Shown here: positions 122 through 18,742 of the stretch, piece by piece
Numbering within the stretch: the first letter of the stretch is position 1
Layout of the letters: every line of letters starts with the position of its first letter
NCBI GenBank assembly: GCA_040767965.1
Contig: JAXGNR010000016.1
Coordinates: 1 to 29,939, forward strand
Direction of reading: 5' to 3'
Length of the DNA stretch: 29,939 bases
Source: Atribacterota bacterium
GTDB taxonomy: Bacteria; Atribacterota; Phoenicimicrobiia; Phoenicimicrobiales; Stramentimicrobiaceae
Notes under the pieces: generated by a model
Database searches by the model: none
What the model was told of the DNA's origin: nothing
What the model saw: the letters and a program-made list of their open reading frames with translations, nothing else
Translations under genes and position numbers: made by a program

Positions 122-248
122 ATTGTGAGAATGGAAAAGTGTAAGATTGGAAGAATGGAATGTTGGAAGATTGGAATAAGAAAAAATCAACAATTGGAAG
201 ATTGGAAAGCTGGGATACTGGAATTATGGAATATTGGAAGAATGCTTG
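122..248 (+). repeat. Two tandem arrays of degenerate 8-bp units (consensus nnTGGAAn)
   Basis: 122-177: attgtgag aatggaaa agtgtaag attggaag aatggaat gttggaag attggaat. 193-248: attggaag attggaaa gctgggat actggaat tatggaat attggaag aatgcttg. Confidence 0.9.
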
Positions 249-299
249 GGAATTTTCTTTTTTTTAATATAATTGTAAAATATTGGAAAGAATTGTAAA

Positions 300-707: not shown

Positions 708-785
708 GTATAATAATAATATTGAAAAATTGTAATATCTTGATCGGCTTATTTTTAAGTTGTAATAAATAATTTGATTTATATT

Positions 786-849
786 TACCCAATTTTGCAA
801 AATTCCACCATTCCAATATTCCAATCTTACATTCTTGCAATCTTACCAA
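786..849 (-). repeat. 8-bp tandem array, inverted relative to 122-248
   Basis: tacccaat tttgcaaa attccacc attccaat attccaat cttacatt cttgcaat cttaccaa; the reverse complement gives attggaat/aatgtaag/attgcaag units. Confidence 0.88.
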
Positions 850-862
850 AGGAGTGTGCCAT

Positions 863-1114
863 ATGTCCAAACAAAAAATGATTTCCAAAACAATTCAGTT
901 TCCACCTGAATTAATTTCAGAAGCTAAGCAGGCCAGTCGGGAAATGAACATGAATTTCAGCGAACTGATTAGAACAGCTACCTGTCTTTTTCTAAAACAT
1001 GGGTGTCAGGAGAAAATAAAAAAGCTCCTGGCTGAAGGGTACCAGGAAAAATCAAAGCTGAATAAATGCATCTGTGACGAATTCGGAAGCTCTGACGGGG
1101 AGAATGTCTTATGA
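863..1114 (+). CDS. Ribbon-helix-helix (CopG/NdoAI-like) antitoxin
   Basis: RBS AAGGAG then ATG at 863. KTIQFPPELI...MNFSELIRTA fits an RHH pattern, and the LAEGYQE C-terminus resembles MazF-cognate antitoxins. ATGA overlap with the toxin. Confidence 0.8.
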   Translation: MSKQKMISKTIQFPPELISEAKQASREMNMNFSELIRTATCLFLKHGCQEKIKKLLAEGYQEKSKLNKCICDEFGSSDGENVL

Positions 1115-1467
1115 GCAGCAAAATCAAGAAAGGTGATATTGTCCTGGTGAATTTAAATCCTGTTTTAGGCTCTGAAGCGGGAAAAACCCGTCCATGTATA
1201 ATAATCCAGAATGATGTAGGAAATGAATTTGCCTCTACGACTATCGTTGCAATCGTCACCAGTCAGAAAGATATCTCCCGGGAATATCCAACTGATGTCT
1301 GGATTAGCAAGAGTGAAAGTGCCCTGGATCTGGACAGTATTGTCCAATGTGATCAAATTCGTACTATTGATAAAAACAGGATTTTAAGGAAAATCGGACA
1401 TTTGAATCAGGATATTATCAAAAAAATTAATCGAGCAATCCTGGTCAGCCTTGATTTGAGTTTTTAA
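1111..1467 (+). CDS. mazF: PemK/MazF family mRNA interferase toxin
   Basis: KGDIVLVNLNPVLGSEAGKTRPCIIIQND...CDQIRTIDKNR, classic MazF motifs. Confidence 0.95.
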   Translation: MSSKIKKGDIVLVNLNPVLGSEAGKTRPCIIIQNDVGNEFASTTIVAIVTSQKDISREYPTDVWISKSESALDLDSIVQCDQIRTIDKNRILRKIGHLNQDIIKKINRAILVSLDLSF

Positions 1468-1503
1468 ATAAATAGTATCTCAAAAATCAATTGACAACCT
1501 CAT

Positions 1504-1540
1504 CCCCACCTTAATCCTCCCCCATCAAGGGGGAGGAAAT
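1504..1540 (+). repeat. REP-like GC-rich palindrome (divergent relative of the 47-bp family); may also terminate mazEF
   Basis: ccccaccttaa-TCCTCCCCC-atcaa-GGGGGAGGA, a 9-bp perfect stem with a CCCC-ACC leader like the 17143 and 20405 copies. Confidence 0.7.
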
Positions 1541-1581
1541 TAGAAGAGAGATAATTCTCGCCTCTAGGGATAAGATCATTA

Positions 1582-1722
1582 TGAACCTTCAATTGTGTTT
1601 TATTATAGTCTTATCTAGCTGTCCAGGAAAGCAGGAGGTTCATCTTATCTAATTGTCCAGTAAAATGGGGGGAGGTTCATTTATTATAGTTTTATCTAAT
1701 TGTCCAGTAAAGCGGGGGTTCA
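1582..1722 (-). repeat. Tandem array of three IS3-family left ends (43, 37 and 61 bp) related to the IS at 20449
   Basis: Minus strand: TGAACCCCCGCTTTACTGGACAATTAGATAAAACTATAATAAA | TGAACCTCCCCCCATTTTACTGGACAATTAGATAAGA | TGAACCTCCTGCTTTCCTGGACAGCTAGATAAGACTATAAT...GAAGGTTCA. The IS left end reads TGAACCTCCCCCGCTTTACTGGACAGAAAGATAAGGCTATAAT. Confidence 0.92.
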
Positions 1723-1731
1723 ATTAGAATA

Positions 1732-1752
1732 ATAATGGTCTTCCTTCAATAA
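1732..1752 (-). mobile_element. Collapsed IS3 footprint: IRL tip fused to IRR tip with a 4-bp direct repeat
   Basis: Minus strand TTAT|TGAA-GGAAGACCA|TTAT. TGAA is the first 4 nt and GGAAGACCA the last 9 nt of the IS at 20449-21715. Confidence 0.7.
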
Positions 1753-1792
1753 TTCCCTCTCCCCTCGGAGGGAGAGGGTTGGGGTGAGGGGG
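1746..1792 (-). repeat. 47-bp REP-like palindromic repeat, copy 1
   Basis: Reverse complement CCCCCTCACCCCAACCCTCTCCCTCCGAGGGGAGAGGGAATTATTGA; 2 mismatches to 17143-17189. Confidence 0.95.
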
Positions 1793-1800
1793 ATCTGATT

Positions 1801-3151
1801 TCACTCAAATTTAAATTCTTTTTCCCTGAATAGTTTCACACAGATATCTACTACTTGCGAGTCATACAATATTCCCTGGTGTTTTACTATCTCATCTAAC
1901 GCCGCATCTATTCCCAGAGATTCGCGATAAGGACGATAGGAAGACATAGCTTCCACTACATCCGCAACAGCGATAATTTTCGCCTCTGTTAAGATATCTT
2001 CACTTTTAAGACTTTCCGGGTAACCGGATGAATCCAGCCTTTCGTGATGCTGGAGAACAATTTTGGCAATAGGATAGCCAAAATCAATATCTTTCAGAAT
2101 ATCATATCCTATCCGGGGATGATTCTTGATCAAACTGTATTCGAGATCACTCAGCTTCCCAGGTTTAGTCAAGATCTCAGAGGGAATTCCAATTTTCCCG
2201 ATATCATGGACCAGAGAAGCAATCCTGATACTCTCAATCTTCTCTTCAGGCAATTCTAATTCCCGGGCAATACCAATAGCAAGTTGAGTCACTCTGACCT
2301 GGTGACCGGCAGTATATGGATCCCGAATTTCGCTAATTCTGGCAATGGTTTCGATAGCTCCGTCAATTGTTTTTTGCAGCCTGGACTGGTAAGTTCTCAA
2401 TTCTGTTATATCAATAGAAGCACACGTCACTCCAACTATCTGTCCTTTTTCATCCATCAGGGGTTCTGTAACTAACTGGTAATAAAAAGGCTTCCCTGGA
2501 TAGTTGTTCTGACCTCTTCCCGACTCCCTTCCCTGCTGGCAAGGACCTCTTTTTTATTTCCGTCAAACGTGCCGCTTCCTCGGCAGGTAACATTTCTTCA
2601 TCTGTTTTCCCAATAACTTCTTCTGCATCAAAACCGGGATTTGGGTTATAGATCCAGGTATAGCGTAAATCTTTATCCTGGCTCCAGACAATAATTGGAG
2701 ATTTATTAATCGCTACTCTGAATCTTTCTTCACTTTTTCGCAAAGCATCTGCAATTTCCTCTTTTTCGATTCTGATTTGGTTATGCCGCAAAGCTTCTCT
2801 GACAGCTAATGGCAAACGATGCATATGCTCCTTTATGACATAATCATCTGCACCGGCTTTCATGCATTCCACCGCTGTTTCTTCATTCATAGAACCGGTC
2901 AGCATAATAAAAGGAATATTCTTACCTGCAGACATCAATATTTTTAAGGCGCTCATGCCATCAAAAGAAGGCATAGAATAATCTGAAATGACAATATCCG
3001 GATTAAATTTCTCCAATGCTTTTTTGTAATCGGTCTCATTGTCTATAACCTGATCAGTAAAATCTATCTTCTCTTTTTTCAGTGCTCGTCTGGCCATTTC
3101 TGCATCAGTTTGTAAATCTTCTACAAAAAGGATTTTAATCTTATTGGACAT
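1801..3151 (-). CDS. Response regulator REC-PAS-HD-GYP phosphodiesterase, split by two apparent 1-nt homopolymer deletions
   Basis: REC (VEDLQTD...SDYSMP), PAS, and HD-GYP (HDIGK, HHERLDSSGYP, RPYR). Adding one base in T6 (2550-2555) and one in A5 (2484-2488) restores ...KKEVLASREGSREEVRTTIQGSLFYYQLVTEPLMDEKG and joins ORFs 2450-3151 and 1801-2457. Confidence 0.88.
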
Positions 3152-3218
3152 ATCTACTCCCTAAATGTAAATTTATTATTTTATTAACAAATTTATAGAA
3201 TAGAAATTTTTATTCACT

Positions 3219-3316
3219 TTATTCACGTTTCTGATTTAATAATAACCAGTATAAACCAATATCTCGAACTGCTGCAATAAATTTATCAAAATCTCTACTT
3301 TTTTAACTTTTTCCAT
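3219..3316 (-). pseudogene. Internally deleted Rcp1-type single-domain response regulator
   Basis: RBS GAGGT, then MEKVKKVEIL joined out of frame to DFDKFIAAVRDIGLYWLLLNQKRE*. These are the N- and C-termini of Rcp1-like receivers, in the usual position between kinase and regulator. Confidence 0.8.
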
Positions 3317-3366
3317 GATACCTCTTTATCCTTTTCAGACAATATCCTGCCATGTTTCATGTTCCC

Positions 3367-5599
3367 TTACCCTGGCAATGAGAAATAAAAAGTTGCCCCT
3401 TTATTTTCCTCTCCTTCAGCCCAGACTCTTCCTCCGTGCCGGGAAATAATTCTTTTGACAATTGCCAGCCCTACGCCAGTTCCCTCAAATTCTTCTTCCC
3501 GGTGTAGTCTCTGGAAAACCTGGAAAGCCTTTTCAATATACTTCTGGTTAAATCCCACGCCGAAATCCCTGATAAAAAAGATAATTTCATTATTTTTCCT
3601 CTGGAAGCCAATTTCGATCTTTTTTGTTTGTACACGGGAACTGTATTTTAAGGCATTACCAATCAGATTCTGCCAGACATGTTTCATCAGGTTTGTATCA
3701 CATTTAACCATGGGCATATCCTTGATAACAACATCAAATTCATCTTTCTCCCCGGCAGTAGCAACTTCATGATAAATGGATTTGGCCAGCTCGCCCATTT
3801 CAATCTCCTCCAATTTTACTTCAGTTCGGGAAATTCGAGATAAGTTGAGCAAATCAGTTATAAGCTGATCCATCTTTGCAGCATTATCACGGATAGTATC
3901 AAGATATCTCCTACCCTCATCATCCAATCGGGTAGAATAATCTTCCAGCAAAAATTTGGAGAATCCGTTAATTGCCCGCAGGGGTGCCCGTAAATCATGA
4001 GAGACCGAATAAGTGAAGGCTTCTAATTCCTGATTAACCTCTTCCAGTTTTTTTCGTTCAGCTTTTAATTCATCAGTAATTTCATTCAGGTCCTCTACCA
4101 TATAGAGTAAAGCCTTTTGACTTTTATCCAGTTTTTCTACATGTTTTTCTAACTGCGCTGTCCTTTGGTTAACTTGTAATTCCAGTTCATTTTTAAAATT
4201 CCTTAATTCAGATTCAGTTTTTATCTGATCGGTAACATCAGATTATATTTCCATAAAGGCGTTTTACTTTTCCATTTTCCATTTCAGATTTCCCGATTGT
4301 CCGAACCCATTTTTTTGTTCCATCAGAGGATTTAAATTCCAGCACTAAATCATAAGGTTCACCTGTCTCAAGAGCTTTCTGAAAGGCGATATCCAATTTA
4401 TCCCTTGCTGCCGGCAAATAAAAAGAACTGCTTGCCTCATAGCTAATTAATGGATTTTCTTCCCGGGGAACTCCATATATCTCATAAACCCCGTCAGTGC
4501 AATTTACCGTACCGGTTTTCACATCATACTCCCAGCCACCAATTTTTGATATTTTTTCCATCTCTTTTAAAAGTAACTGCTGCTTTTGCAAAATATCCAG
4601 TGTTTTTTTATGTTCTTTTATCTCTGCTTTCAGGTTACTGGTTCTTTTCTTAATTTGTTTACGCAGGATAAAGATAGAGGCCAGCAGGAAAATAAGAAAT
4701 AAAGGGAAGAATACATGCAGGGCAATAGTCAAAATCCTGTTTAATGGAATTTCTTCCATAGCCTGGGGACCAAACCATTTTAGCCGGATACTGTTATAGG
4801 TACCATCTGCTATGATAATGGAAAGACCTTCGTTTAGACGGGATAACAATTCTTCATCACCTTTCTGCACTGCAAAACAAAAATCCTGACGGAATTCAGG
4901 CAACTGCAAATCCAATACCTTCACAGACTCTATTCCCATTTCATCCAAAAGATGCAACCCCATTACCCTTTGGGTAATGACTGCATCATATTCACCACCC
5001 GCTAATTTTTTAAAAGCTTCTTCAAAAGTATTTGTAGTATGGATTTGATTAGAGATATTCTCTCTTCTGACAAATTCCTCCGCATTATCCCCGCGCATTA
5101 CACCGATTGATTTGTCTTTAAGGTCTTCAATAGATTTAATATACTCGGTTTCCTTTCTCACAAATACAGCACCATGTAATGATAAATAAGGTAAAGTGAA
5201 ATCAAACAATTCTTCTCTTCCAGGAGTTCGACCTACCAATGGGAGAGCATCGATTTTACCTTCAGCAAGATCCTGTTTAATCTCATTCCAGATACCTATC
5301 TTAATCTGGACATCTAAATTGACTCTATTTGCAACTTCTTTGAAAAGCTCGATTGAAAATCCATCAGGATTACCATTCTCATCAACAATACAGTAGGGAG
5401 GATAATCCGGTTCAGAGGCAATAGTAATCGTTTCAGGGGTTCTTTCAGAAAAATCAAAATTTTGCTGTCCTTCTGAAGCAAGACTAAAAATGATAATTAA
5501 ATTTAAGAATAGAAACAGACCTAGGGCAAGCAGAAATATCTTTTTCTTTGGAAAGCAATTAGGTTTTTTCAATAAATTTTTATTATTTACTTCCATCAT
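3367..5599 (-). CDS. Membrane sensor histidine kinase (family-3 substrate-binding domain, TM, PAS, HisKA, HATPase; Cph1-like kinase core), one frameshift near 4240
   Basis: YPPY...GFSIEL PBP3, a TM helix, PAS (GGWEYD), H-box [31 protein letters not shown]. The stop-free linker [12 protein letters not shown]...KSQKALLY joins ORFs 4238-5599 and 3367-4101. Confidence 0.88.
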
Positions 5600-6738
5600 G
5601 GATTCTTTCTTAATTCTTCAACTTCCTGATTCAGTGTCTTGATTTCTTCTTTTAACTCATTAATACGATATTCACGGTTAATTGTGGCTTTTTGATATTC
5701 TTCCAACTCAGCAACTCTGTGTTGTAATTCTCCGGTTTTCTCTTGAACCTCGATTTCCAGCTTCTCTTTTAATTTTTTTAATTCCTCTTCTGCCTCTTTT
5801 CGTCTAGTGATATCCCTTCCCAGACCTATAATTTCAATCACATTGCCTTTTTTATCCAAAATTGCCCTATCATTCCAGGCAAACCAGCGCCAGCCATGCA
5901 CGGTTTTTGCCCGCTGCTCCAAGTAACAGGTATAGGGAGGCTTATAAAGAACTTCCATGGCTTTAGATGTTGATTCTAAATCATCCGGATGGACCAGATG
6001 TAAAAATTCATTTCCAATTAACTCCTCCTCTTTTTTACCAAATGTTTCACAATAAGAAGGACTTACAAAAAGAAATTTTCCATGGATATCAATCTTAACA
6101 AGTAAATCTATCTGATTGGCTATCAAAAGCTTATATTTTTCTTCACTCTCTTTTAACTTTTCACGTGAATCAATAAATTCCTCCCTGTCAATGATTAATT
6201 TAGCAACAAAAACAGTTGCAACAGGATAAATTGCCAGTATGGGAAGTGCCAGATCATAAAGCACGGCCAACCCTGTCTTCCCGGGCAAGGTTAACATCCA
6301 TGATAGCATAATAATATGAAGAATAAATCCAAACAAATATAGATAAAGTGGAGTCCTGGCTTTCTGATAAGGAATCAGGCGTCGGTATAACAGGCCAATG
6401 ACTGCATAGGTTACAATACCGGCTATTCCTGTAAGGGCTGCAAATCCGCCTAGAATATAACGATAGACTGCTGCCATAATGACTATAATAATAGCTGCGA
6501 TAGGGCCACTGAAAAATGCTCCCAGGCTGATAATCACAGATCGACCGTCAAAAATAAGCCCGGGAAGATAATGAATCGGAACCAGCATAGCAACGATAGC
6601 AATCAAGCCAAAAAGTATTCCAGTTAATACCCTATAAACCATCCTGTTCATTTGTTTAAATTTTTGGTAAACAAGGCTGTATAGAAAACTTAAAACAATC
6701 AAAAAAGCGATATTACTGGCTAACCCCTGGATAAACAA
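5596..6738 (-). CDS. LytS/YhcK-type 5TM receptor + PAS + C-terminal coiled coil, no catalytic output domain
   Basis: [15 protein letters not shown] 5TMR-LYT motif, PAS (VHPDD...GRDIT), and a tail ending [23 protein letters not shown]. Confidence 0.85.
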
Positions 6739-6766
6739 TGTATTTTTCCTTCTATTTCATTTAATA

Positions 6767-8136
6767 TTAATCTGGATTATCTTTATTTAAACGTTTGATT
6801 TCCTCTTTCAACGCTTTAATGCGGAATTCTCTATCTACGGCTGCCTTTTGGAATCTTTCCAGCTCTGTAACCCGTTCCTGCAGTTGCCTGGTCTTTTCTT
6901 CCACCTGTTGCTGGAGATAGTCCTTTAATTTTCTCAATTCCTGTTCAGTTTCTTTTAATTCAGTAATATCAGTAGCAATAATTGAAATCAATCCCGGTTT
7001 TGGTGTACTGGCAGTGATATAAAGATGCTTTTGTATTGGTTTTAAAAATGTTTCAAAAGAAGCCGGTTTGCCCGTATCTTACCACCTGGCTGTAGATATC
7101 CAGATAAGGTGCCTCTCCAGTTCTATAAAGTTGAGATGCCAGAGAACCAATTGCCTTTTACGGCTTATCCCATGTAACTCTTCATAAGCAGAGTTCACAT
7201 CAAGAATTCGATAATCAACTATTTTCCCATTATCATAAATAACTTCATCCAGGCACTGGCTGAAGCCATATTTTCAAAGATTGTCCGATATTTAGATTCA
7301 CTCTCCTGCAAGGCTTTTTCAGCTTTTTTCTGTTCACTGGTATCCTCATAAACTGCAACTATTTCTCCGGAAGGCAGTTTATAGACCGTGTTTTCCACCC
7401 ATTGATGAATCCGGTTATCCTGATACATAACAAGGGGCAAATGCATCATTTTCCCGGTTTGTAGACCTTTCTGAAGACCTCAAAGAGGCCACTTTGACCA
7501 TGGGAAAAATCTCTGTCACCTTTTTCCCAACTACCTCTTCCTTTTTAATCTGGCTTAAATTTTCTGCTGACTTATTAATATCTCTGAAGATAAAATCTTG
7601 TCCATCCTGACAGGCTTCATAAATTGCTACACAGCTGCCTATGGTATTAAACAATGCCCGATAACGCTCCTCGCTGATATAAACTTCTTTCTCGATTTTT
7701 TTACGCTGGCTGATATCTCTTGTTACACCCTGAAAACCGATGAATTCACCTTTTTCATCTAACAGGAGCTTGCCCGTTACTTCAAAATCACCTTCCTTAT
7801 TCTGTTTATTGAAAGCCTTTGTTTCAAAACTAATGGTTTTAAGATTTTTATTTTTATAGTCTTTTAAAGCTTGATCTATTTTTTTTAGAGTCTTTCTATA
7901 TTCTTCTTCACTCCATGAGATTTTAGTGATGTTCCAATCCACTCTTCCGGCTTGAAACCAAGTATTCTCACTAAAGAAGGGCTCACATAGGTAAATACGA
8001 GATTTTTATCTGTGGTCCAGATACAGTCAACTGAATTTTCGGCAAGCAGGCGGTATTTTTCCAGAAGCCATTGCTGGTTTTCCAAATTCTGTTCTTTACT
8101 AATTTTATTTGTCTTAGAGTAATTTTTATCTGCCAA
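6767..8136 (-). pseudogene. Triple-PAS protein with C-terminal coiled coil, about 6 frameshifts (decayed or sequencing errors)
   Basis: RBS GGAGGT + TTG at 8136. ORF fragments 7885-8172, 7415-7942, 7219-7449 and 6767-6991 join across shifts near 7914, 7494, 7458, 7255, 7157 and 7080 into three PAS domains ending RDIS, EDTS and TDIT. Confidence 0.8.
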
Positions 8137-8407
8137 AATTACCTCCAAAAATAAAAATAGGATAAGAATCACTTTTTTCTCAAAAGTAATTATTTAAGTG
8201 TTCAAATCTGTATAGGTTTATGAAATTATTATGAATAGAAAGATCTTTAAAGTAGGCTGAACTATGTTAATTATATTTATTTTATCAGAAAACAAGAAAA
8301 TCACTAAAAAATTTAAGTGTATTTTAAGTATATTTTGTATATTTTATTGATTTATCATAATAATATAAAAAAATGCAAGCCAGAAATTATATCAGAATAC
8401 TTTCTGC

Positions 8408-10147
8408 TTAAACTGACAATACTTTTTTAAGAAAAACCTCTACAATTTCAGGGTCAAACTGGCTTCCTGCTCCTTTTTTCAACTGCAGGACAGTCTCTTC
8501 CTTGCTTAAGGCTTTCCGGTAGGGACGGTCATCGGTCATGGCATCATAGGCATCTGCCACCATGATAATCCTGGATTGCAGCGGTATCTCTTCTCCCCGC
8601 AGTCCACCTGGGTAACCTTTGCCATCCCATCTTTCATGATGATAAAGCACAATTTCGGCTATTGGGCCATATTCATTAACTGAGCTTAAAATATTATAGC
8701 TGAGCTCAGGATGTCTTTTGATTTCTTTCCATTCATAATCGGTAAGAGGGCCTCTTTTATTCAAAATATCACTATGAATGGCAATTTTTCCAATATCGTG
8801 GTACTCCCCTGCAACTTTAAGCTCTTTTATTTCTGCTTCACTTAATCCCAGAGCAGAACCGATTGCCACACTGATTTTGCTGACTCTTCTGGCATGATCT
8901 CTTTCCCTGGATTCCTTGTTAAATAAGGTATCGATAATAATCTGAAGAGATTGCTGGCGTTGATCGTCTTTTTTATAGGCTTTTTTGCTATACATATAAT
9001 CTTCAGCTCTTTTAAAAACACTTGCAATATCTTCCTTCTCATTTGCCTTGGTTTCCCAGCCAAAAGAGGCAGAAACCGGCAGATTTCTGATTTTCTTTTT
9101 ATGAATTGCCTCAATCAAACGATCACCCAGAATGGCAACCTGCAAATGGTCTGTTTTTGGCAATAAAATCACAAATTCATCTCCACCAATACGGGCAATA
9201 ATATCATCTGCCCGGCATTCCTCTTTTAAAACCTGAGCAACTTTTTGCAGCAGCTGGTCCCCAGCTTCATGGCCAAAGGCATCATTGGTCAGTTTTAATC
9301 CATTTACATCAACCATGACCAGACTAAGAGGCAGGTTTCTTAAAGTATCCAGTCTTTTCAGTTCTTCTTCAAAAAAACGACGGTTATACAATCCGGTTAA
9401 CTGGTCAGCATAACTTAATTCTTTTACCTCCTGTACCGAGATTCTGATTCTATGTCTCATTTCATTCAGATAATCGACAAGCATCTGCAGCTCATCCTGT
9501 ATTTTTAAACTTCGCTGCAGAATCAATGACTGGCTTTTTTCACCGGGATTGTCTGTCTTGATAAAACGGGCAATCACTATCAGATTTTTCCCGATAACAA
9601 AATAGAAAGCACCTGCTACAATGGATGCTAAAACAAAAGCGAGCAAGGTCTGCAGCAAAAAGAAGGAATAAGCATTGTGAATCACTCCTGATTTTATCAG
9701 GGCTGTATTGGTATAAAAAATAATAGCCCCGATCTCCCGTTCTGTATCCCGATAGGGATAAATGAGCTTATAAGTAACAGGCTCCTGGGACTCCTGGATA
9801 TCTTTTCCGGCAACCCAGAAATGCTGAGCATCATCATATACTTCTACCCGATCGATAAAATCAAATTGAGTAAGCCCTTCAATCTGACTCTGTAAATGTT
9901 CATAATTGGTTATCCATAAGCTGGAAACAATAACAGGGACATGAAGGTCTTTGATATGAACCAAAGTGTTTTTTAAGTGATTTATCTCGTTTCGATGAAG
10001 CACTAAACTATGAATCACCGTCACAACTATAGCCAGAAAAAGAAAGGCAATCAAACAATATAGAAATACTCTCCAGGTAGTAGAATCTTTCCAGTTAAAC
10101 CCTCGGGAAACGTTTGTCATTTTTTTCTTCTCCTCTAATGTTTTCAC
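8408..10147 (-). CDS. Membrane sensor with GGDEF and HD-GYP domains
   Basis: Two TM segments, a HAMP-like linker, DQLTGLYNRR, I-site RADD, GGDEF, HDIGK, HHERWDGKGYP. The start may be the ATG at 10120. Confidence 0.93.
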   Translation of the reverse strand: MKTLEEKKKMTNVSRGFNWKDSTTWRVFLYCLIAFLFLAIVVTVIHSLVLHRNEINHLKNTLVHIKDLHVPVIVSSLWITNYEHLQSQIEGLTQFDFIDRVEVYDDAQHFWVAGKDIQESQEPVTYKLIYPYRDTEREIGAIIFYTNTALIKSGVIHNAYSFFLLQTLLAFVLASIVAGAFYFVIGKNLIVIARFIKTDNPGEKSQSLILQRSLKIQDELQMLVDYLNEMRHRIRISVQEVKELSYADQLTGLYNRRFFEEELKRLDTLRNLPLSLVMVDVNGLKLTNDAFGHEAGDQLLQKVAQVLKEECRADDIIARIGGDEFVILLPKTDHLQVAILGDRLIEAIHKKKIRNLPVSASFGWETKANEKEDIASVFKRAEDYMYSKKAYKKDDQRQQSLQIIIDTLFNKESRERDHARRVSKISVAIGSALGLSEAEIKELKVAGEYHDIGKIAIHSDILNKRGPLTDYEWKEIKRHPELSYNILSSVNEYGPIAEIVLYHHERWDGKGYPGGLRGEEIPLQSRIIMVADAYDAMTDDRPYRKALSKEETVLQLKKGAGSQFDPEIVEVFLKKVLSV

Positions 10148-10157
10148 ATTATGACTA

Positions 10158-10928: not shown

Positions 10929-11555
10929 TTCTTTCTCCTTAATTTTAGTTTGCATTTACAAATAAAGTTAATTACTTTCGTGAAAATCTTATTTTAAGGC
11001 ACTAACAATACACTATTATTATTCCCTAATTTAATAAAAAATCCACAAAAAAGATTTTTGCAAGAGCTTTCAATAAAAACAATAATTGAGTAAAGCTATC
11101 TTTTCAATATAACAAATGCCTTTTATTTTGTCATTCTTTAGATAGTTTTTATATAAAGAAAAGAAACGTGCTTAAGAATTTTTTCTTTAATTATTAAAAT
11201 GGTTTATATTGGCTATGGTTATAATGGTTTTAAAACATTTAATAATCCTTATTGAACATGATTAAATTTTATTTAAATTATATCTTATTCATTATATGAA
11301 TTAAACTAAAATTTATGTTCAATATACTTTATTTTCATTAAGAAAAATGATATAATTTAAAATAAATTGAAAAAATATTTAGTATAATTATTGTTTTATT
11401 ATCTATATAATATAAATCTTAATATTATTTTGGGAATTTAAAAACTGTTGTGATTTATTTTGCTTATTTTTATCAACTCATATTTTCTAAATTTAACAGC
11501 AGGAATTTGATCTGTCTTTTTGCAGATTGAAAAATTAATAGTTCTCTAAAATAAA

Positions 11556-11640
11556 TTGTAAAAAGCAAACTGTCTGAAAAGACAGGACGCAAAGTTATGG
11601 GCCCAAAGCAAACCTTTGCCATGGCTGCCAGACTACCAAT
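11556..11640 (+). ncRNA. GEMM-I cyclic-dinucleotide (c-di-GMP-I class) riboswitch aptamer
   Basis: GCAAAC-TGTCT-GAAA-AGACAG-GACGCAAAG...GGCCCAAAG...CATGGCTGCC...CTACC: P2 with a GAAA tetraloop, the GACGCAAAG junction, and P3 with a receptor-like motif, in the 5' region of a surface-protein gene. Confidence 0.92.
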
Positions 11641-11994
11641 TTATTTTTGTTCGTTACGGTAAAATGAAACGGATGAAAATAACAAAAGCTTCAACTGCCT
11701 CTACCCTTTCATTTTGAAATATTCTGAATATTTCATCCTTTTCTTTATTTCATCTTTTTCCGGATGATAAATATAAATTACTACCAGGAATAATTGGTTT
11801 CTATATTGCAGTTATTTAACTTCTATAATTTATAAAGGAAGGAGTTGGTTATTTGTTTAACTATTACTCTAAGAAATTATTTTGAAGGAGGTGAATCGCT
11901 TAAGCTAGAGAATATTTGTTAAATAAATCATTAAAAAACTTTCATGTTTAACTTAAGAGTGAAATCCAAATGAAAATGAAGGAGTTTAATTTAA

Positions 11995-14900
11995 ATGAAA
12001 TATAATAAGAATATATTTTATTCAGTCTTACTAATAGCATTTTTGATCATGGTTGCTGGCTGCGTCCCACCTGTTCCTCAAATTATTGAAGTAACAGAAG
12101 TCAATATACCACAGGAAGACCAATCATTAGAAGTTGGTAGTATTCTTCAGCTTTCTGCAGTGGTAACTCCAGCCAATGCCACCAATAAGGCAGTGGAATG
12201 GAAATCAAGCAATAGCAACATTGCCACAGTAAGTGAAGAAGGGTTGGTTACAGCAATATCCATCGGTGCGGTAGATATAACAGTCACCACTGATGATGGT
12301 TCGTTTACAGATACAGTTAAAATAAACATTATCGCTCAATATGGTAATGGAGATGAATGTGACACTTGTCCACCATCAGGACCAACAAAATATGCCCTAA
12401 CCATGGCTGTCTCACCTGCAAATAGTGGTACTGCAAACGATACAACCAATAACAGCCCTTATGTAAAAGATGCAGTCGTTAATATACAGGCTACACCTGA
12501 GGACGGATGGGCTTTTGTTGACTGGAGTGCACCCACTGGTGTTTTTGGAGATAAAGATAATCCAAATACAACCTTCACAATGCCAGGTCAGGCCGTTACC
12601 GTTACTGCCAATTTTGAAGAAGTCTATCCGGTTAATTTTGAAATTACCGGTTCACCAGGAATCCCTGATGCGCTTATAGAAATTTTTTCAGATGAAGCTA
12701 TGACTAATAAAGTAACTGAAATTAGTACTGATGGTGATGGTGAAGCATCTGTAGAATTACCGGACGGTGATTATTGGTTTAAAGTAACCAAAGATGGTTA
12801 TGTAGACTATCAAGGTAGTTTTACTGTTAACGGTGGTACTGTTAACCTTGATGTTATAGATATGGATAAAATCCTGCACGTTACTTTCAGTATAGTCAAT
12901 CCCGCAGGTGGAACCCTGATAGCAGAAGTAGATGGAACAGAAATAAGCTCCGGGGATGAGGTAATTGAAGGTAAAGAAGTTATCTTTACTGCTTCTCCGG
13001 TTACTGGCGCCAAGGTTAAGGAATGGAAACTTGATGGATCTGTCGCAGCAGGTGAGACCGGAAATACTTATACTGTTTCTGATCTGCAGGCTGACATTGA
13101 AGTTACTGTGGAATTCGAAAGAAAACCTTGTTTTGAGCCAAGAATAGCTGTCAGTGCAGAAGAAATCAGACCAGGGGATACCTTTACCATTGAATGGTAT
13201 GTAAAAAACAAAGGTTCTGTGGCTGACACCCAGGATGTCCTTCAACAGGTTGTCTTAAAAGATAAAGACGGAAATATTAAACATGAAGGTGCAGGTACAA
13301 CCAATACGGTAACTTTGGCTGCAGGAGAAGAAAAGTTGGTTGCAACTAATAATCCTAACACAGCTGCTGGAAAAGTATGGGCTGCAGAAGATGGCGATTA
13401 CTTTGAATTAACCTTAACCACTGATTGCGGGGATCCGGCCACTCAGAGAGTAGATGTGGTTATTCCTAAATATTTAGTCACTTTTAACCCGACACCTCGT
13501 GGAGGCTCCTTAATTGCAGAAGTGGATGGAACAGAAATAAACTCCGGGGATGAAGTTCCTGAAGGTAAAGACGTGGTCTTTACTGTTACCCCCATCGATG
13601 TGGCTCAGGTTAATCACTGGGAAGTCAACAGCACTGAAGTTCCTGGTGAAAAAGATAACATCTATACCTATTTGGATTTACAAATGGATATAGATGTAGC
13701 TGTTTTCATGGAAAGAATCCCTTCAGTTGTAGACCCTGATAACAGCAGTGCCAGCTTTATGGACAATACAAACGGAACCGGAACTATGACTCTTACTATT
13801 ATGGATCAATTCAATGTTCCAATGGATGGATTTGGTTTAGCTGATATGGAAAGAGAAATAGCCAATTGGGTTAATTTTGAACAAATCAATACAAATGCCA
13901 GCTGGGATGTTTCTCTGGAAAGCGCAGCAAGTGGAATTTATGAAGTACTCTTCACCTATTCTGATAATGGTGGAAATTATGGACCAAGGAACTGGAATAT
14001 CAGGGTAGATAATGTGGTGATAGAGGAAAATTTAAGTGTTCAGATCACCTATATTCCTCCTGCATTCTTTGATGCATCTTTTACCATGAAAATAAATGGT
14101 GAAGAAATTTCTGATGGTGGCAATGTACCTTTAGGATCAACTCTTAATATTCCCTGGTTAGTCGAAAATACCGGTGGAATGGAAGGCACTCAGGACATCT
14201 TCTATGGTATTTTTGCTGAAAATGGTGATCCTATTGGTGTAGGACCTTATCCGACCAATCCGGCAAATGCTGCTAAAACTCTTGCTCCAGGTGCCCAGTG
14301 GTTCTTTGACAGCAATACAAATATTGACAACCGTTTCAGTGCAGGCAATACCTATATGGTTAAAATTGAAACTGAAGATGATACAGAAATCATGTATTTT
14401 GTAGCCGTTGAACCTGCCTGTTTTGAACCGAGAATTGCTGTCAGCGCAGAAGAGATCAGACCTGGAGATATCTTGACTATTGAATGGTATGCTACCAATA
14501 TCGGCGGCATCGAAGATACTCAGGATATCTTGCAAAAGGTTGTCTTAAAAGATAAAGACGGAAATATCAAACATGAAGGTGCAGGGACAACTTATACAGA
14601 AACACTTGCTCCTGAAGATGGTGAAGTATTGCTGGGAACAAGTAATCCTAACACAGCTGCCGGAAAAGTCTGGGCTGCAGAAGATGGCGATTACTTTGAA
14701 TTGACCTTGACTACTGATTGCGGGGATCCGGCTACTCAGACCGTGAATGTGGTTGCCCCCTTCCCAGATGATTTATCCAGCTCAGTTGCCTGGATAGACA
14801 ATGAAGATGGCACCGGCACTATGACTCTCACGATCATTGACCAGGATGGTAACCCAATGGACGGATTTGGATTAATTGATATGGAAAGAGTTGTCACTGG

Positions 14901-15459
14901 TGGAATCAATTGGAGATCATTTGATAATATTAATGGTTTTGCCAGCTGGGATGTAGATCTTCAGGATGTGACAAATGGTGTTTACACTGTTTTGTTTACT
15001 TACTATGATGGTGAATATGGACCGGAAAACATCGATGTCAGAGTTGATGGTTATGTTATTGAAGAAAATCTGGAAGTCGGCATCACTGACCATGTTTCAG
15101 ATGTAGAAGCAGATGTGTCAGCGCTCATTTTGTATATGGAGAGCGGTTTCGCTAGTTCAATTTCGAATCAATCAACCTATCCGTATTCAGCAGCCTTACC
15201 AATAACAGGGCCTAGCGGTACAACTATTAAATGGCAATACATACTCTCATCTGGAGATATTATTTTAGATTCCAGCTTTGAGGATGATGACAATGGTTGG
15301 GATCTTGACCCGGTTGAATGGCAATTTGATGATGGCGCATCTGATGCTGCCTTTACCGCCAGCGTCTCCAAAGGAACCGTTGAAGAATTAATAGACTTCA
15401 CTATATCTGTTACGGGAACAGGCGCAGCTGCAGTGTTTACCATTAACTATATACCATAA
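11995..15459 (+). CDS. Large acidic surface lipoprotein with Big_2 Ig-like, InlB-B/Flg_new-like repeats, carboxypeptidase-regulatory-like and CARDB-like beta-sandwich domains (putative adhesin)
   Basis: Lipobox MVAG-C; PANATNKAVEWKSSN (Big_2); GWAFVDW...TTFTMP; repeated internal modules; RBS AAGGAG. Confidence 0.88.
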   Translation: MKYNKNIFYSVLLIAFLIMVAGCVPPVPQIIEVTEVNIPQEDQSLEVGSILQLSAVVTPANATNKAVEWKSSNSNIATVSEEGLVTAISIGAVDITVTTDDGSFTDTVKINIIAQYGNGDECDTCPPSGPTKYALTMAVSPANSGTANDTTNNSPYVKDAVVNIQATPEDGWAFVDWSAPTGVFGDKDNPNTTFTMPGQAVTVTANFEEVYPVNFEITGSPGIPDALIEIFSDEAMTNKVTEISTDGDGEASVELPDGDYWFKVTKDGYVDYQGSFTVNGGTVNLDVIDMDKILHVTFSIVNPAGGTLIAEVDGTEISSGDEVIEGKEVIFTASPVTGAKVKEWKLDGSVAAGETGNTYTVSDLQADIEVTVEFERKPCFEPRIAVSAEEIRPGDTFTIEWYVKNKGSVADTQDVLQQVVLKDKDGNIKHEGAGTTNTVTLAAGEEKLVATNNPNTAAGKVWAAEDGDYFELTLTTDCGDPATQRVDVVIPKYLVTFNPTPRGGSLIAEVDGTEINSGDEVPEGKDVVFTVTPIDVAQVNHWEVNSTEVPGEKDNIYTYLDLQMDIDVAVFMERIPSVVDPDNSSASFMDNTNGTGTMTLTIMDQFNVPMDGFGLADMEREIANWVNFEQINTNASWDVSLESAASGIYEVLFTYSDNGGNYGPRNWNIRVDNVVIEENLSVQITYIPPAFFDASFTMKINGEEISDGGNVPLGSTLNIPWLVENTGGMEGTQDIFYGIFAENGDPIGVGPYPTNPANAAKTLAPGAQWFFDSNTNIDNRFSAGNTYMVKIETEDDTEIMYFVAVEPACFEPRIAVSAEEIRPGDILTIEWYATNIGGIEDTQDILQKVVLKDKDGNIKHEGAGTTYTETLAPEDGEVLLGTSNPNTAAGKVWAAEDGDYFELTLTTDCGDPATQTVNVVAPFPDDLSSSVAWIDNEDGTGTMTLTIIDQDGNPMDGFGLIDMERVVTGGINWRSFDNINGFASWDVDLQDVTNGVYTVLFTYYDGEYGPENIDVRVDGYVIEENLEVGITDHVSDVEADVSALILYMESGFASSISNQSTYPYSAALPITGPSGTTIKWQYILSSGDIILDSSFEDDDNGWDLDPVEWQFDDGASDAAFTASVSKGTVEELIDFTISVTGTGAAAVFTINYIP
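12907..15090 (+). repeat. Internal domain duplications in the lipoprotein gene (B1-A1-B2-C1-x-A2-C2)
   Basis: A: about 13129-13461 and 14419-14754 (CFEPRIAVSAEEIRPGD...TTDCGDPATQ, near-identical DNA). B: starts 12907 and 13501 (GG.LIAEVDGTEI.SGDEV.EGK). C: about 13745-14050 and 14780-15090 (GTGTMTLTI.DQ...PMDGFGL). Confidence 0.9.
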
Positions 15460-15495
15460 ATTGGATTGTGAATTGATACTCAAAAGATAATTTAG

Positions 15496-15532
15496 AAAAA
15501 ACCTTGCCGGTTAAATCTGGCAAGGTTTTTTT
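15496..15532. terminator. Bidirectional intrinsic terminator
   Basis: AAAAAA-CCTTGCCGG-ttaaat-CTGGCAAGG-TTTTTTT between convergent genes. Confidence 0.9.
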
Positions 15533-15575
15533 AAATCAAACTATCAAAGAAAATCTATATAAAGTACACTAGAAA

Positions 15576-16694
15576 TTATATTCTTATGATTGTATTGTTT
15601 TTTTCCTTCTTCACTTGATACATTCCCTTATCAGCTTTTTTAATTAATTCATCAATATTTACTGCATCCTGGGGAAATCTCGCACATCCAATACTAACGC
15701 CCAGAAAAGGAATATTCATTTCCAGAAAATTAATAATCTTTTTTCTAAAAGTTTTTAAAAATGAGCTTATCTTACTACCCCGATATAGGCAAACAAACTC
15801 ATCTCCTGACATTCGATAAATTGTTCCACTGCTGCCTACTGTAGCAATTGTTGCCTCAGTAAATTTTTTCAGGTACTCATCCCCTTTTGAATGCCCATAG
15901 GTGTCATTAACTTTTTTAAAGTTATCCAGATCCATATAAATAAGAGTAAAAGGAATGGCATTTACAATCATTTCATCACAATCCAGAAAAAGCGCCAGGC
16001 GATTCTTAATACCAGTCAGGTTATCGGTATAAGCTAAGTTCTTCAGCAAACTAATACTTTTAGTATTTTTTACTATTATAAAAATCAGGTGATAATTAAC
16101 CAGGGCAGTTAATGCAACTAGGAGCCCTGTAATAATTTTCCAGATAGAGATCATGGAAGGAAGATAAAAATAGATTATGCATAAAATAAGAAATTCAATC
16201 AATCCCAAAAATACAAGATAATAATTCATCCATGCAGAGATATTTCTCAAGATATAGAGAAACTTATTTCTTACAAACTTTATTACAAGGGGAGTACTAA
16301 CAAGATAGACAATAGTTTGTATTATTAAAGCAGCCTGGAATTGATGGCTGAATCCAAGTATTTCAGATACCTGAATTGAGAAGAAAGTGACAGTCATAGT
16401 GTGAATCCAGGAGAAAAACATAATTGATAAAATCTTATACCAGGCTTCCTGGTAAAGATAATTTAAAGGGAGGAAATAAGTAAGTCCTAATAATATTATC
16501 AAGCTGGGATCAAGATAGGGAATTGTTAATATAAATCTTAATGAAAAAGAAGTCAATAATATAAATAATGTGCATAGCACAAGCATCAATACTGTTTTTC
16601 CCAGGGAAAATTTTCTTCTGGCACTGCGGTCTGCTGTTAACAGATTCACCAGTAACATTTCTAAAAATATAATCGTTCTTGCTAATGTTTCCAT
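15576..16694 (-). CDS. Polytopic membrane diguanylate cyclase (SGDEF variant, no RxxD I-site)
   Basis: Multiple TM helices, DNLTGIKNR, DLDNFKKVNDTYGHSKGD, RMSGDEF. Confidence 0.9.
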   Translation of the reverse strand: METLARTIIFLEMLLVNLLTADRSARRKFSLGKTVLMLVLCTLFILLTSFSLRFILTIPYLDPSLIILLGLTYFLPLNYLYQEAWYKILSIMFFSWIHTMTVTFFSIQVSEILGFSHQFQAALIIQTIVYLVSTPLVIKFVRNKFLYILRNISAWMNYYLVFLGLIEFLILCIIYFYLPSMISIWKIITGLLVALTALVNYHLIFIIVKNTKSISLLKNLAYTDNLTGIKNRLALFLDCDEMIVNAIPFTLIYMDLDNFKKVNDTYGHSKGDEYLKKFTEATIATVGSSGTIYRMSGDEFVCLYRGSKISSFLKTFRKKIINFLEMNIPFLGVSIGCARFPQDAVNIDELIKKADKGMYQVKKEKNNTIIRI

Positions 16695-17028
16695 ACTCTA
16701 TTCCTTATTTCAGTAATTTTTAGATTCAAAAGAATAAATTATTTCTATTTTCACCCTAATTCTTCATTTAAAATTTAACAAATTACTTTTTATCATATTA
16801 AATATTTTGTGTCAATTTTTTTAATTATAGCTCCAACCTTTATAAACCTTCTTGTAGCTTTTTAAATAAATAATACTAAGCAATAGCAGGTAATCCCGTA
16901 AAGGGAAAAACGCGAGCGACATTTGGGATCAATATAGTTGTTAGTAAAATAATTTTCAATTTTTTGTTCATAGTTTTTAGAAAAATATCCTCTTTATCCA
17001 TTCCTGTATTCTGCATTATCCTGTTTTT

Positions 17029-17064
17029 GTCGTTGGTCGTTAGTATTTGGTATTTAGTTAAAAA
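17029..17064 (+). repeat. 7-bp tandem array, inverted partner at 18397-18436
   Basis: gtcgttg gtcgtta gtatttg gtattta gttaaaaa; 17050-17064 is a perfect 15-bp inverted repeat of 18397-18411. Confidence 0.8.
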
Positions 17065-17142
17065 TCATTAAGTATGTCTTGAACTAACACCTTATTCAAA
17101 CTGAATGTTAATAGTATCGTTAATATTTTTTAATCATTACCT

Positions 17143-17189
17143 CCCCCTCACCCTAACCCTCTCCCTCCGCGGGGAGAGGGAATTATTGA
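17143..17189 (+). repeat. 47-bp REP-like palindromic repeat, copy 2 (no IS inserted)
   Basis: CCCCCTCACCCTAACCCTCTCCCTCCGCGGGGAGAGGGAATTATTGA, followed by a partial right arm (gaggagagggattt). Confidence 0.95.
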
Positions 17190-17228
17190 GTAACTTCCGA
17201 GAGGAGAGGGATTTGATAGTATTCGGAC

Positions 17229-17480
17229 TCAATACTATATACTTGATACACGATACATTATTCCATTATTGCAACGTTCCATCGTTCCATAATGCCACTA
17301 TTTATTTCCCTATTCTTCTATTATTGCATTATCTTGGTATTTTAAACTAATTAACCAATTAACTAACACAACTAATTAGCTGGAATTTATTGAATTAAAT
17401 TACCCATTCTTCCAATATTCCATTTTTGCAATGTTCCAGTGTTCCATTATTGCACTTTTTCGCTTTCCCAATCTTACAAG
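17229..17480. repeat. Mosaic of 7-bp and 8-bp tandem arrays
   Basis: Heptamers tcaatac tatatac ttgatac acgatac (17229-56); nTTCCAnn octamers at 17260-99 and ten units at 17401-80; AAC(T/C)AA units of about 8-bp period at 17343-75. Confidence 0.85.
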
Positions 17481-17492
17481 ATAGTTCATTAG

Positions 17493-17521
17493 TGGACATT
17501 TGTGAACATTAATGATAATAT
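17493..17521 (+). promoter_or_regulatory. Putative sigma70 promoter/operator of the Phd-PIN pair
   Basis: TGGACA-17 bp-TAATAT with an extended TGn; direct repeats gtggacatt/gtgaacatt 10 bp apart overlap the -35 region. Confidence 0.4.
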
Positions 17522-17540
17522 ATTATACGAGGTGATTTTA

Positions 17541-17789
17541 ATGAAAACTGTTAATTTAAGAGAAGTCAGAAACAATTTTAATAAAATACTGGAAATGAAT
17601 CAGGAAGTTATTGTAGAAAGCAGAGGGAAACCCTTAGCCAAGATAAAACCATTTACTAAAGCTGATATTGTACAATATTATCTGGAAAAGGCCCAGGAAG
17701 CATCTCTTGAATTAGGTATTACCAAAGAAAAAGGAGATAAGCTTTTAGAGCAGGTGAGAAAGGAATTGCTTGATGAAGGTCGTTATTGA
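17541..17789 (+). CDS. Phd/YefM family antitoxin
   Basis: RBS GAGGTGA; MKTVNLREVRNNFNKIL...VIVESRGKPLAKIKP. Confidence 0.88.
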   Translation: MKTVNLREVRNNFNKILEMNQEVIVESRGKPLAKIKPFTKADIVQYYLEKAQEASLELGITKEKGDKLLEQVRKELLDEGRY

Positions 17790-18177
17790 TACAAATGTTG
17801 TCATCTCAGCTGCTTTAGGTTCTAACACCTGTTCGAAAGTTATACTGTGGACGATTAATAATACAGAAATTATCGAACCCAATATCGTATCAATTGAACT
17901 AGAACATTTTTGTAAGAAAATTGTTTCACAACAGAAATTAAAAAATAATACCAAACATCTGGAAGACTTTTTTAAAGTTTTTCTATCCTTTTGTACAATT
18001 AAAAGTCCTGGCAAGATATTAAATATCAGTACAGACAAACCAGATAATCATTTTTTATCTTTATCCCTTGAGGAAAATGCTATTTTTATTACCGGTGATA
18101 AACTGGCACTTAATTTTGCAAAAAATAATAAGATTAAATCATCTTCTCCAGGTGATTTTTTAAAGAAAATGAAATAA
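17773..18177 (+). CDS. PIN-domain (VapC-like) toxin
   Basis: MKVVIDTNVVISA...DKPDNHFL...FITGDK; overlaps the antitoxin. Confidence 0.9.
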   Translation: MKVVIDTNVVISAALGSNTCSKVILWTINNTEIIEPNIVSIELEHFCKKIVSQQKLKNNTKHLEDFFKVFLSFCTIKSPGKILNISTDKPDNHFLSLSLEENAIFITGDKLALNFAKNNKIKSSSPGDFLKKMK

Positions 18178-18201
18178 TTACAGATATATATTCCATTGTA
18201 A

Positions 18202-18632
18202 TTGATAGTGAGTAGTTTTCAGATTTTAGTTTATAGTTTTCAGAAAAAGAAATCCTGTTTATCTATACTTGAATTCTACAATATACCGTTTTTATTTTTG
18301 AAAAAAAGAAAAGGAAAAGTTGATTACTTAAAGTTTTATAGCCTGGAATAATAGAATATTGGAAAAGTGCAATTTACTTTTTAATGTATTCAATTGTTTT
18401 TAACTAAATACTAACTACCAACTACTATCGACTAATCAGGCAATCTCATGCATTTATAAAAAAGTATCGCGTCGTTAGTATCGTATATGTAGTTGAAAAA
18501 TCGTAATTAGTTAGAAATGTATTCTAATTCTTTAAGCTCTATACTCGGTACATTATTCCAATATTCCAGCATTCTACTCTTGAAGGCTTATATGGTATTT
18601 CCTCTAACAACCAAATACCAACAGCAAATAGC
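18202..18632. repeat. Mosaic of 7-bp and 8-bp tandem arrays between two TA modules
   Basis: ttgatag tgagtag ttttcag attttag tttatag ttttcag (18202-43); TGGAA octamers 18342-73; inverted heptamers 18397-436; gtatcgc gtcgtta gtatcgt at 18464; TTCCA octamers 18547-78; heptamers 18605-32. Confidence 0.82.
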
Positions 18633-18670
18633 TATTCTACTTCATATCTTGGATATTGTGATTTTTATGC

Positions 18671-18724
18671 TTGCAAAAAAATATAATTATAGTATAATAT
18701 TGTTATCATATGATAACAATATTA
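18671..18724 (+). promoter_or_regulatory. Promoter with a perfect 30-bp palindromic operator upstream of the mqsR-like gene
   Basis: TTGCAA (18671)-16 bp-TATAAT (18693); palindrome TAATATTGTTATCAT|ATGATAACAATATTA at 18695-18724. Confidence 0.75.
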
Positions 18725-18742
18725 AATTTGGGGGATAATTAA

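Follow-up and report, generated by a model that had tools for sequence, protein, structure and literature searches.

Inverted TTCCA-type octamer arrays in the toxin-antitoxin islands of an Atribacterota genome: a candidate hairpin-arm system of gene spacers

Why do arrays of one octamer word, built on the core TTCCA, stand in the same orientation in front of three unrelated toxin-antitoxin (TA) modules (RHH-MazF, Phd-PIN and an MqsR/A-like pair) on a single contig of an Atribacterota bacterium? The contig (C16; 29,939 bp) was analysed in its entirety and is called the window here; it belongs to a genome of 2.33 Mb in 30 contigs, rated 98% complete, which is labelled G000 (relatives' genomes are G001, G006, etc., and C denotes a contig). 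Its phosphofructokinase shares 72–76% identity with the enzymes of seven Atribacterota metagenome-assembled genomes, in keeping with an uncultured member of this phylum. A first-pass annotation had proposed that unrelated selfish genes are captured or shuffled at these repeats, like an integron without attC sites. This integron-like reading is not supported by the comparisons below. Instead, we favour by a modest measure the reading that the TTCCA arrays are the local octamer word of a periodic-repeat hairpin-arm system, which fills the spacers from gene to gene in Atribacterota.

The three-unit pattern TTSCA-N3-TTSCA-N3-TTSCA has 11 matches in the window, where 100 dinucleotide shuffles average 0.00, and chance is therefore excluded for the window arrays. 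The three arrays noticed first (786–849, 17401–17480 and 18547–18578) were found again at their places, all on the plus strand. A chain detector combined with inspection defined seven octamer arrays, and the first-pass annotation had listed three of the four on the plus strand and none of the three inverted ones. The arrays and the other repeats of the same spacers are:

132–176, minus strand: octamer array, newly added
195–239, minus strand: octamer array, newly added
795–848, plus strand: octamer array, within the first array of the annotation
17261–17297, plus strand: octamer array, solo arm, newly added
17410–17478, plus strand: octamer array, solo arm, the second array of the annotation
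18344–18372, minus strand: octamer array, newly added
18556–18576, plus strand: octamer array, the third array of the annotation
17021–17065, 17222–17260 and 18397–18440: heptamer arrays in the same spacers
1498–1570, 1745–1794, 17142–17189 and 20405–20452: repetitive extragenic palindromic (REP)-like hairpins in the same spacers

Every window array lies outside the long open reading frames (ORFs), and neither the pattern nor the detector scan of the window finds an array at about 1,900–16,900 or beyond 20,600. The remark that arrays are missing around the signalling and sugar genes holds for these two stretches, but not for the left edge, where an array tract (119–250) begins 9 nt 3' of the stop codon of a GGDEF gene. 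As in short tandemly repeated repetitive (STRR) sequences, the units are tandem 8-nt direct repeats, longer than chance allows and mainly intergenic. Tandem Repeats Finder (TRF) reports period 8 at 128–244, 789–846, 17256–17332 and 17410–17446, and its output at score 30 is mostly A/T-rich low complexity; no Rfam family was found over the arrays. A generic detector of periods 7 and 8 returned 43 rows in the genome and 32 in the shuffled genome at equal setting, and from it only visually coherent arrays were kept and no genome-wide statistic was drawn. Seven more rows of the chain detector, on C4 and C5, were not array-like and were left out. The REP-like hairpins, with a further copy at 20332–20369, belong to two families, CCCTCTCCC...GGGAGAGGG and GAGATTGCTTCG...CGCAATGAC, which have many copies family-wide and a far wider spread than the octamer arrays; the elements at 1498–1570 and 1745–1794 have many matches in 17 of 22 family genomes.

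Once the inverted arrays are counted, the first array proves to be one half of a pair, and the left end of the window reads as follows:

119–250, minus strand: left arm of a four-helix-bundle cassette, two TTCCA-type octamer arrays
300–707, plus strand: four-helix-bundle gene (23S_rRNA_IVP / TIGR02436; IVP below), the loop between the arms
782–848, plus strand: right arm, the first array of the annotation, ending at the antitoxin Shine-Dalgarno sequence
863–1467, plus strand: antitoxin (83 aa) and MazF/PemK toxin (1111–1467)

The gene in the loop matches PF05635 with 67.3 bits (cut-off 33.8) and TIGR02436 with 66.8 bits, and a promoter-like site, a consensus match only, lies ahead of it at 246–273. 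The arms (119–250 and 780–855) give a calculated duplex of −56.1 kcal/mol, compared with −28.7 ± 4.6 kcal/mol in shuffles (z −5.9), and the minimum free energy (MFE) fold of 119–860 places 48 base pairs between them; they are symmetrical as far as their last two units. As in cassettes of the intervening sequence (IVS) type, a PF05635 ORF is enclosed in a predicted stem by complementary termini, here between a GGDEF gene and a TA operon and not in a 23S rRNA helix. The TA operon follows with its toxin (PF02452, 118 bits) and an antitoxin that has no Pfam match. Its homologues in G007:C218 and G008:C11 are 73–74% identical in nucleotides, have no TTCCA array upstream, and resemble the window only from 845 or 875 onwards. 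Since the arms enclose the four-helix gene and the RHH-MazF homology starts at 845 or 875, the array at 786–849, which stops 14 nt upstream of the ATG (863) of the antitoxin gene 5' of MazF, is the right arm of the four-helix cassette; it belongs to the cassette between the GGDEF stop and the antitoxin ribosome-binding site, not to RHH-MazF. At G000:C12:55896–56237 the end of a paralogous GGDEF gene has three TTCCA arrays on the minus strand behind it; the stretch is 74% identical to window 6–233, runs off its contig and may be the left arm of another cassette.

The ends of the arrays are fixed. The likeness of the first two arrays pointed out earlier is borne out, with TTACCCA.T as the start and AATCTTAC as the last unit of both. 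An alignment of 9 copies, drawn from 6 genomes, shows this start and end again (...CCATTC directly followed by TTGCA ... CTTGCAAG), and the two delimit a conserved core of ~60 nt (from the same start to CTTGCAAGCATTT.TTCTCTCAGTATTCA). The sole self-complementary portion of the octamer elements is their 8–10 bp end, (G)CTTGCAAG(C).

The second and third arrays lie in an island farther along the window:

17021–17297, plus strand: mosaic spacer of heptamer array (17021–17065), REP hairpin (17142–17189), heptamer array (17222–17260) and octamer array (17261–17297)
17301–17478, plus strand: 178-bp block ending in the solo octamer array 17410–17478
17542–18177, plus strand: Phd/YefM-like antitoxin and PIN toxin (Pfam)
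18344–18576, no strand assigned: gene-less hairpin doublet of octamer array 18344–18372 (minus), facing heptamer arrays at ~18397–18440 and ~18466–18500, and octamer array 18556–18576 (plus)
18671–20371, plus strand: MqsRA-like/Panacea TA module, with the toxin ORF at 18821–19027 and antitoxin pieces across 19138–20141
20517–21685, plus strand: IS3-family transposase, orfA and orfB (PF01527, PF00665), which closes the island

The array at 17401–17480 ends 63 nt 5' of the Phd-PIN ATG (17542), and that at 18547–18578 lies ~245 nt 5' of the MqsR-like ORF and forms one arm of the doublet, in which the octamer arms have a calculated duplex of −24.7 kcal/mol (z −4.2) and the nested heptamer arms one of −23.4 kcal/mol (z −3.8). 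The label MqsR/A was about right. In relatives where the module is intact, its products are a 95-aa protein, which matches MqsR below the threshold (E 0.025), and an antitoxin of 334 aa, MqsA-like with a Panacea domain; the window copy is broken into several short ORFs. It carries indels relative to the other copies, and with several frameshifts this copy is probably dead. A 20-bp palindrome of the module (18700–18719) is conserved in four genomes. Among metagenome contigs the GGDEF gene has only 3 close relatives (83–92% amino-acid identity), and the single such contig that reaches the mosaic spacer breaks off at the REP hairpin, at ~17143.

How are such arrays distributed? Counting arrays of at least three TTCCA/TTGCA units, the genome holds 16 at 6 loci, of which the window has two and C11, C12, C17 and C19 have one apiece. 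The mapping proposed together with the capture idea thus shows an uneven spread over 2.33 Mb, with TA, defence or four-helix genes at 5 of the 6 loci. The C17 locus brackets MazE-YafQ-like, MazF, HicAB, RhuM-fragment and Fic/Doc genes, and those on C11 and C19 adjoin AbiEii genes, a DndB-like gene and a type I methylase; the sixth (C12) comes after a GGDEF gene and is cut off by the end of its contig. A stricter pattern has 12 matches genome-wide and 0 when read backwards. The two-unit pattern TTCCA-N3-TTCCA occurs 35 times, compared with 10–37 times at other spacings, so two-unit matches are not enriched genome-wide and only the longer arrays are. The suggested look for enrichment next to GxxExxY (PF13366) and DUF559 (PF04480) genes has nothing to act on here, both families having 0 matches in the genome.

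A Pfam scan of the genome gives 11 TA toxin genes (6 PemK, 1 small PIN, 3 HicA and 1 weak ParE, leaving out a 383-aa PIN protein). Seven of them lie at most ~2 kb from some periodic array, 4 of these beside TTCCA arrays, and the remaining four (C5:17014, C9:112958, C4:4138 and C10:7) have no periodic array in the flanks read. The association of arrays with TA genes is real but not obligate. A different octamer array, with ACGTCTAA units, lies at G000:C24:986–1048 between a MazF module and a VapB-like module.

Beyond this genome, the strict pattern is present in 8 of 41 genomes searched (7 of 21 other genomes of the family, 0 of 19 of the sister family), and a scan of the phylum finds the pattern in 10 of 86 Atribacterota genomes, including two from another family with near-perfect TTCCACAR units. 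One of these two genomes (G049; many contigs) has 58 matches in near-perfect TTCCACAA/TTCCACAG arrays, more regular and abundant than those of the window. In the relatives, arrays stand beside HicBA, MNT/HEPN, AbiEii/Panacea and a small GIY-YIG gene, and also beside Lon/MarR, PolX, ECF sigma/anti-sigma, Ldh_2, FeoB, HlyIII, an MFS transporter and a type III restriction enzyme. Some positions recur: a layout of sigma/anti-sigma, array, gene and array is common to G001 and G012, and the Ldh_2 site to G001 and G010. Several of the relatives' arrays come to within tens of bases of the end of their contig.

The orientation of the arrays is largely consistent among the loci fetched. Adjacent arrays on opposite strands, at most 200 nt apart, are arranged minus then plus in 7 of 8 pairs, as in the four-helix cassette (the count includes two homologous copies), and doublets with inverted arms have loops of 9 to 183 nt. 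Where ORFs are present on both sides, 21 of 29 arrays point with the 3' end towards the nearer ORF, by crude ORF calls and at loci that are not independent.

Is the four-helix gene generally tied to such arms? PF05635 genes are found in 16 of 22 family genomes, with three in the window's genome. In the flanks read for 28 IVP genes, mostly an upstream array of one word is matched by its reverse complement downstream; the word varies among loci, and only the window copy (1 of 28) uses TTCCA. We compared the upstream flank with the reverse-complemented downstream flank by common 7-mers containing G/C, at the 26 IVP loci whose flanks both measure 150 nt or more. At least 6 common 7-mers are found at 14 of 26 loci and in 74 of 650 cross-locus pairs, and at least 10 at 9 of 26 loci and in 17 of 650 cross-locus pairs. 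In one case, at G000:C4:670399–670656, a broken four-helix-bundle gene with one in-frame stop sits between the PilQ secretin gene and its neighbour and adjoins a heptamer array (C4:670811–670864). The suggestion that the four-helix protein is involved stands as far as its gene is tied to the arrays and lies between two inverted arms, but TTCCA arms flank just one of the 28 IVP genes, that of the window.

The same data bear on the possibility that the arrays are neutral simple-sequence DNA, that is, functionless slippage products piling up where selection is weak, for example in accessory islands. Unit number and sequence do vary at homologous sites (the array of the MqsRA-like module in G013 has different units, 7–8 in number compared with 3–4 in the window), word type changes among loci and lineages, assemblies break at arrays, and polymerase slippage has been put forward for heptamer repeats (Mrazek 2007, as cited in PMC4679880). 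Slippage by itself sits poorly with fixed ends and a 60-nt core conserved across genera, with matched words that are far commoner in IVP arm pairs than in cross-locus pairs, with the consistent polarity of the doublets and with the tendency of arrays to point towards genes, and we regard the neutral explanation as unlikely, though it deserves some weight.

Breakpoints between relatives were compared next to the arrays. The 178-bp block in front of Phd-PIN (17301–17478) recurs at 93% identity on G010:C131, from another genus, with both flanks unrelated and with the last array unit as its right edge; 22 genomes gave no other full copy beyond this one. In G010, contigs that overlap perfectly over 99 bp give the block a place after the MqsRA-like module, where it abuts the end of a restriction gene, unlike the window, where it precedes Phd-PIN. 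The MqsRA-like/Panacea module (~18564–20371) is 97%, 91% and 85% identical to its copies in G006, G010 and G013, all of other genera, and 87% identical over 690 bp to that of G007, another genus. G000:C11 and G006:C15 have 284 bp in common at 93% identity, a doublet included, and part immediately behind the plus arm; the continuation is present on a further contig of G006.

Parts of the region also occur in public runs from landfill, sludge and digester metagenomes, which were compared as short Logan contigs at 90% likeness with sides of 20–39 nt; uncovered parts were not interpreted. About half of the sampled words of 16700–20500, roughly the part of the MqsRA-like module, are found in 20 public runs of 19 studies, and the best run has at most 0.54 of them. 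Joints lead onto 17410 and 17412, from 20371 and 18462, and each of the two is seen in 3 of 4 runs; a joint of 17439 to 18398 is seen in a single run. These are hints only, because such joints often stem from other organisms or repeats. In a variant of 3 of 4 runs, to be read with the same reserve, 18252–18633 is replaced by 20 nt, with breakpoints outside the arrays. From the alignments we read an exchange of blocks between genera at 85–97% identity, with several of the junctions at array edges.

It is here that the integron-like reading finds its evidence. On this view a site-specific recombinase, encoded elsewhere, would insert and shuffle TA cassettes at the arrays, which would be its recombination sites. 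The right edge of the 178-bp block, the parting of C11 from C15/C68 right after the plus array and the joints at the array start 17410/17412 with two different partners would all suit it, together with the concentration of arrays in TA and defence islands and the same-strand arrays of G001:C39, which separate GIY-YIG, HicBA and ThiF genes. A recombinase next to the arrays was not found, however: a PF00589 search of the genome gives 2 matches, both on C4 (447 kb and 587 kb) and away from arrays, and none on C16, C17, C19, C11 or C12; the sole transposase in the window is the IS3 at the island end. TTCCA arrays accompany 0 of 3 homologous cassettes of other genera, namely the RHH-MazF cassettes of G007 and G008 and a Phd-PIN cassette of G014 (75% identical), and in homologues elsewhere their place is taken by heptamer arrays or REP hairpins. 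Moreover, 4 of 11 TA toxin genes lack a nearby array, housekeeping genes are flanked too and some of these positions are conserved between genera, and the modules seem to be equipped with promoters of their own and with an operator palindrome (the promoter-like sites being consensus matches). The elements are direct tandem octamers in which no attC-like imperfect palindrome is present, and the 18252–18633 variant breaks outside them. Altogether, capture by an integron-like system is very improbable.

A second kind of movement would be that of a mobile non-autonomous element, similar to REPINs (hairpin-forming REP doublets) with their RAYT (REP-associated tyrosine transposase) genes or to MITEs (miniature inverted-repeat transposable elements), moved in trans, perhaps by the four-helix-bundle protein. 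A gene inside inverted arms, accompanied by gene-less doublets dispersed elsewhere, is how RAYT genes and REPINs are arranged, and the outer ends are conserved, the window arms are symmetrical to the last two units, and the 178-bp block has turned up in another genus between different flanks. Set against this, a target-site duplication is not evident at 119 or 848, the 178-bp block has a single extra full copy in 22 genomes, and catalytic activity is not known for the four-helix family. With TTCCA arms at only 1 of 28 IVP genes, most TTCCA arms would lack a cognate gene. The three Y1 transposase (PF01797) genes of the genome have no TTCCA arrays in the flanks inspected. We hold such an element to be rather doubtful. 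In a related version the periodic arms would be cis-acting sites of an IVP-linked mobilisation or recombination system, an analogue of REPIN-RAYT, and would serve as junctions for swaps of TA and defence genes between genera; by analogy this is conceivable, and we find it about equally doubtful.

The hairpin-arm reading, which we favour modestly, takes its start from the anatomy of the arms, their complementarity, their distribution and the mosaic exchange, all of which are observations. The basic module would be an inverted pair, 5'-(TGGAA)n, loop, (TTCCA)n-3', with conserved outer ends (…CTTRCA) that point to the neighbouring genes. The loop may be short, as in the gene-less doublets, or contain an IVP gene, as at window 119–848, and solo arms occur too. 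Being made up of short operons in a row, TA and defence islands would offer many spacers, placing arrays beside TA modules, and the exchange of islands between genera as mosaic blocks would bring the arms along. Under read-through transcription the arms might pair in a long stem that would be cut or would insulate the transcripts of neighbours, by analogy with the action of RNase III on intervening sequences of rRNA. In the DNA itself, the arrays presumably change by slippage, and dispersed look-alike arrays could act as junctions for recombination that needs no dedicated recombinase. This case is particular in the restriction of the arrays to horizontally exchanged TA and defence islands, and in the fixed-ended arms at block junctions.

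Several observations weigh against the hairpin-arm reading. Promoter-like sites lie 3' of the arrays at 17493–17521 (Phd-PIN) and 18671–18698 (MqsRA-like), as consensus matches not above shuffles, and would leave those two arrays transcribed only by read-through. Periodic arrays occur at only about a dozen loci of the genome, and most genes therefore need no general spacer function. The solo arms 17261–17297 and 17410–17478 and the four same-strand arrays of G001:C39 are without a pairing partner, and at 5 of 26 IVP loci the arrays on the two sides are direct and not inverted. Finally, breakpoints at array edges fit an active as well as a passive role in recombination.

Elsewhere in the window, a full-length c-di-GMP-I riboswitch (78.9 bits) is found at 11554–11640 on the plus strand, ~350 nt 5' of the gene of a 1154-aa surface protein (11995–15459) with Big_2 and InlB-type repeats, on a contig that is rich in GGDEF and HD-GYP genes. 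Three adjoining short ORFs at 7219–8172 on the minus strand (76, 175 and 95 aa), of which the 175- and 95-aa ORFs contain PAS-domain pieces, are probably one sensor gene broken by frameshifts.

Heptamer/octamer intergenic repeats and the 23S_rRNA_IVP family are two old puzzles of function, and the window couples both physically; at the level of search listings, no paper was found on IVP genes between periodic arrays or on TTCCA arrays of Atribacterota. The fixed arm ends and the near-identical blocks shared between genera offer testable places, as RNA processing sites or recombination junctions, and for recognition of the arms by the four-helix protein. The case also cautions against over-reading, as repeats beside selfish genes need not mean a gene-capture machine.

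Among known systems, type III TA loci have tandem repeats of ~34–36 nt directly upstream of a ToxN-type endoribonuclease toxin. This identity was rejected for the arrays, whose units are 8 nt and whose adjacent MazF, PIN and MqsR-like modules have protein antitoxins. Integron gene cassettes line up small genes that are unrelated to one another, often TA modules, with repeated elements in between, and the window resembles them to that extent; it differs in having no nearby IntI-type recombinase or attC-like palindrome, repeats in both orientations, and cassettes that appear self-promoted. REP/REPIN elements are short, dispersed and intergenic, often form hairpins as inverted doublets, and flank RAYT transposase genes. 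The window shares the dispersed inverted doublets and the characteristic flanking of one gene type, but the flanked gene encodes a four-helix bundle, not a Y1 transposase, and a link to RAYT was rejected on the different flanks of the three Y1 genes.

The closest repeats are the long heptamer-class ones, namely cyanobacterial STRR, the GGGAATC repeats of Xanthomonas and the intergenic TAACTGA repeats of marine Beggiatoaceae (PMC4679880, PMC4692102). By these accounts they are tandem units of 7–8 nt, nearly all intergenic near gene ends or starts, patchy across lineages, of unknown function and sometimes in inverted pairs; PMC4679880 summarises work on heptamer-rich simple-sequence repeats and slippage, and PMC4692102 describes G-rich heptamers of Xanthomonas and Nostoc near gene ends, some as inverted-repeat pairs. 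The window arrays differ in their period of 8, with a fixed TTSCA core, three variable bases and fixed first and last units, and they are rare (16) and confined to accessory islands in this genome, one pair enclosing a gene. The closest counterpart of that gene is the rRNA intervening sequence with an S23p/IVP ORF, in which, as described in PMC4990558, a PF05635 ORF lies within complementary termini that form a long stem (28 bp), cut by RNase III in the rRNA. The window cassette has the same layout, but it stands between protein-coding genes and not in rRNA helix 25/45, and its arms are periodic tandem arrays.

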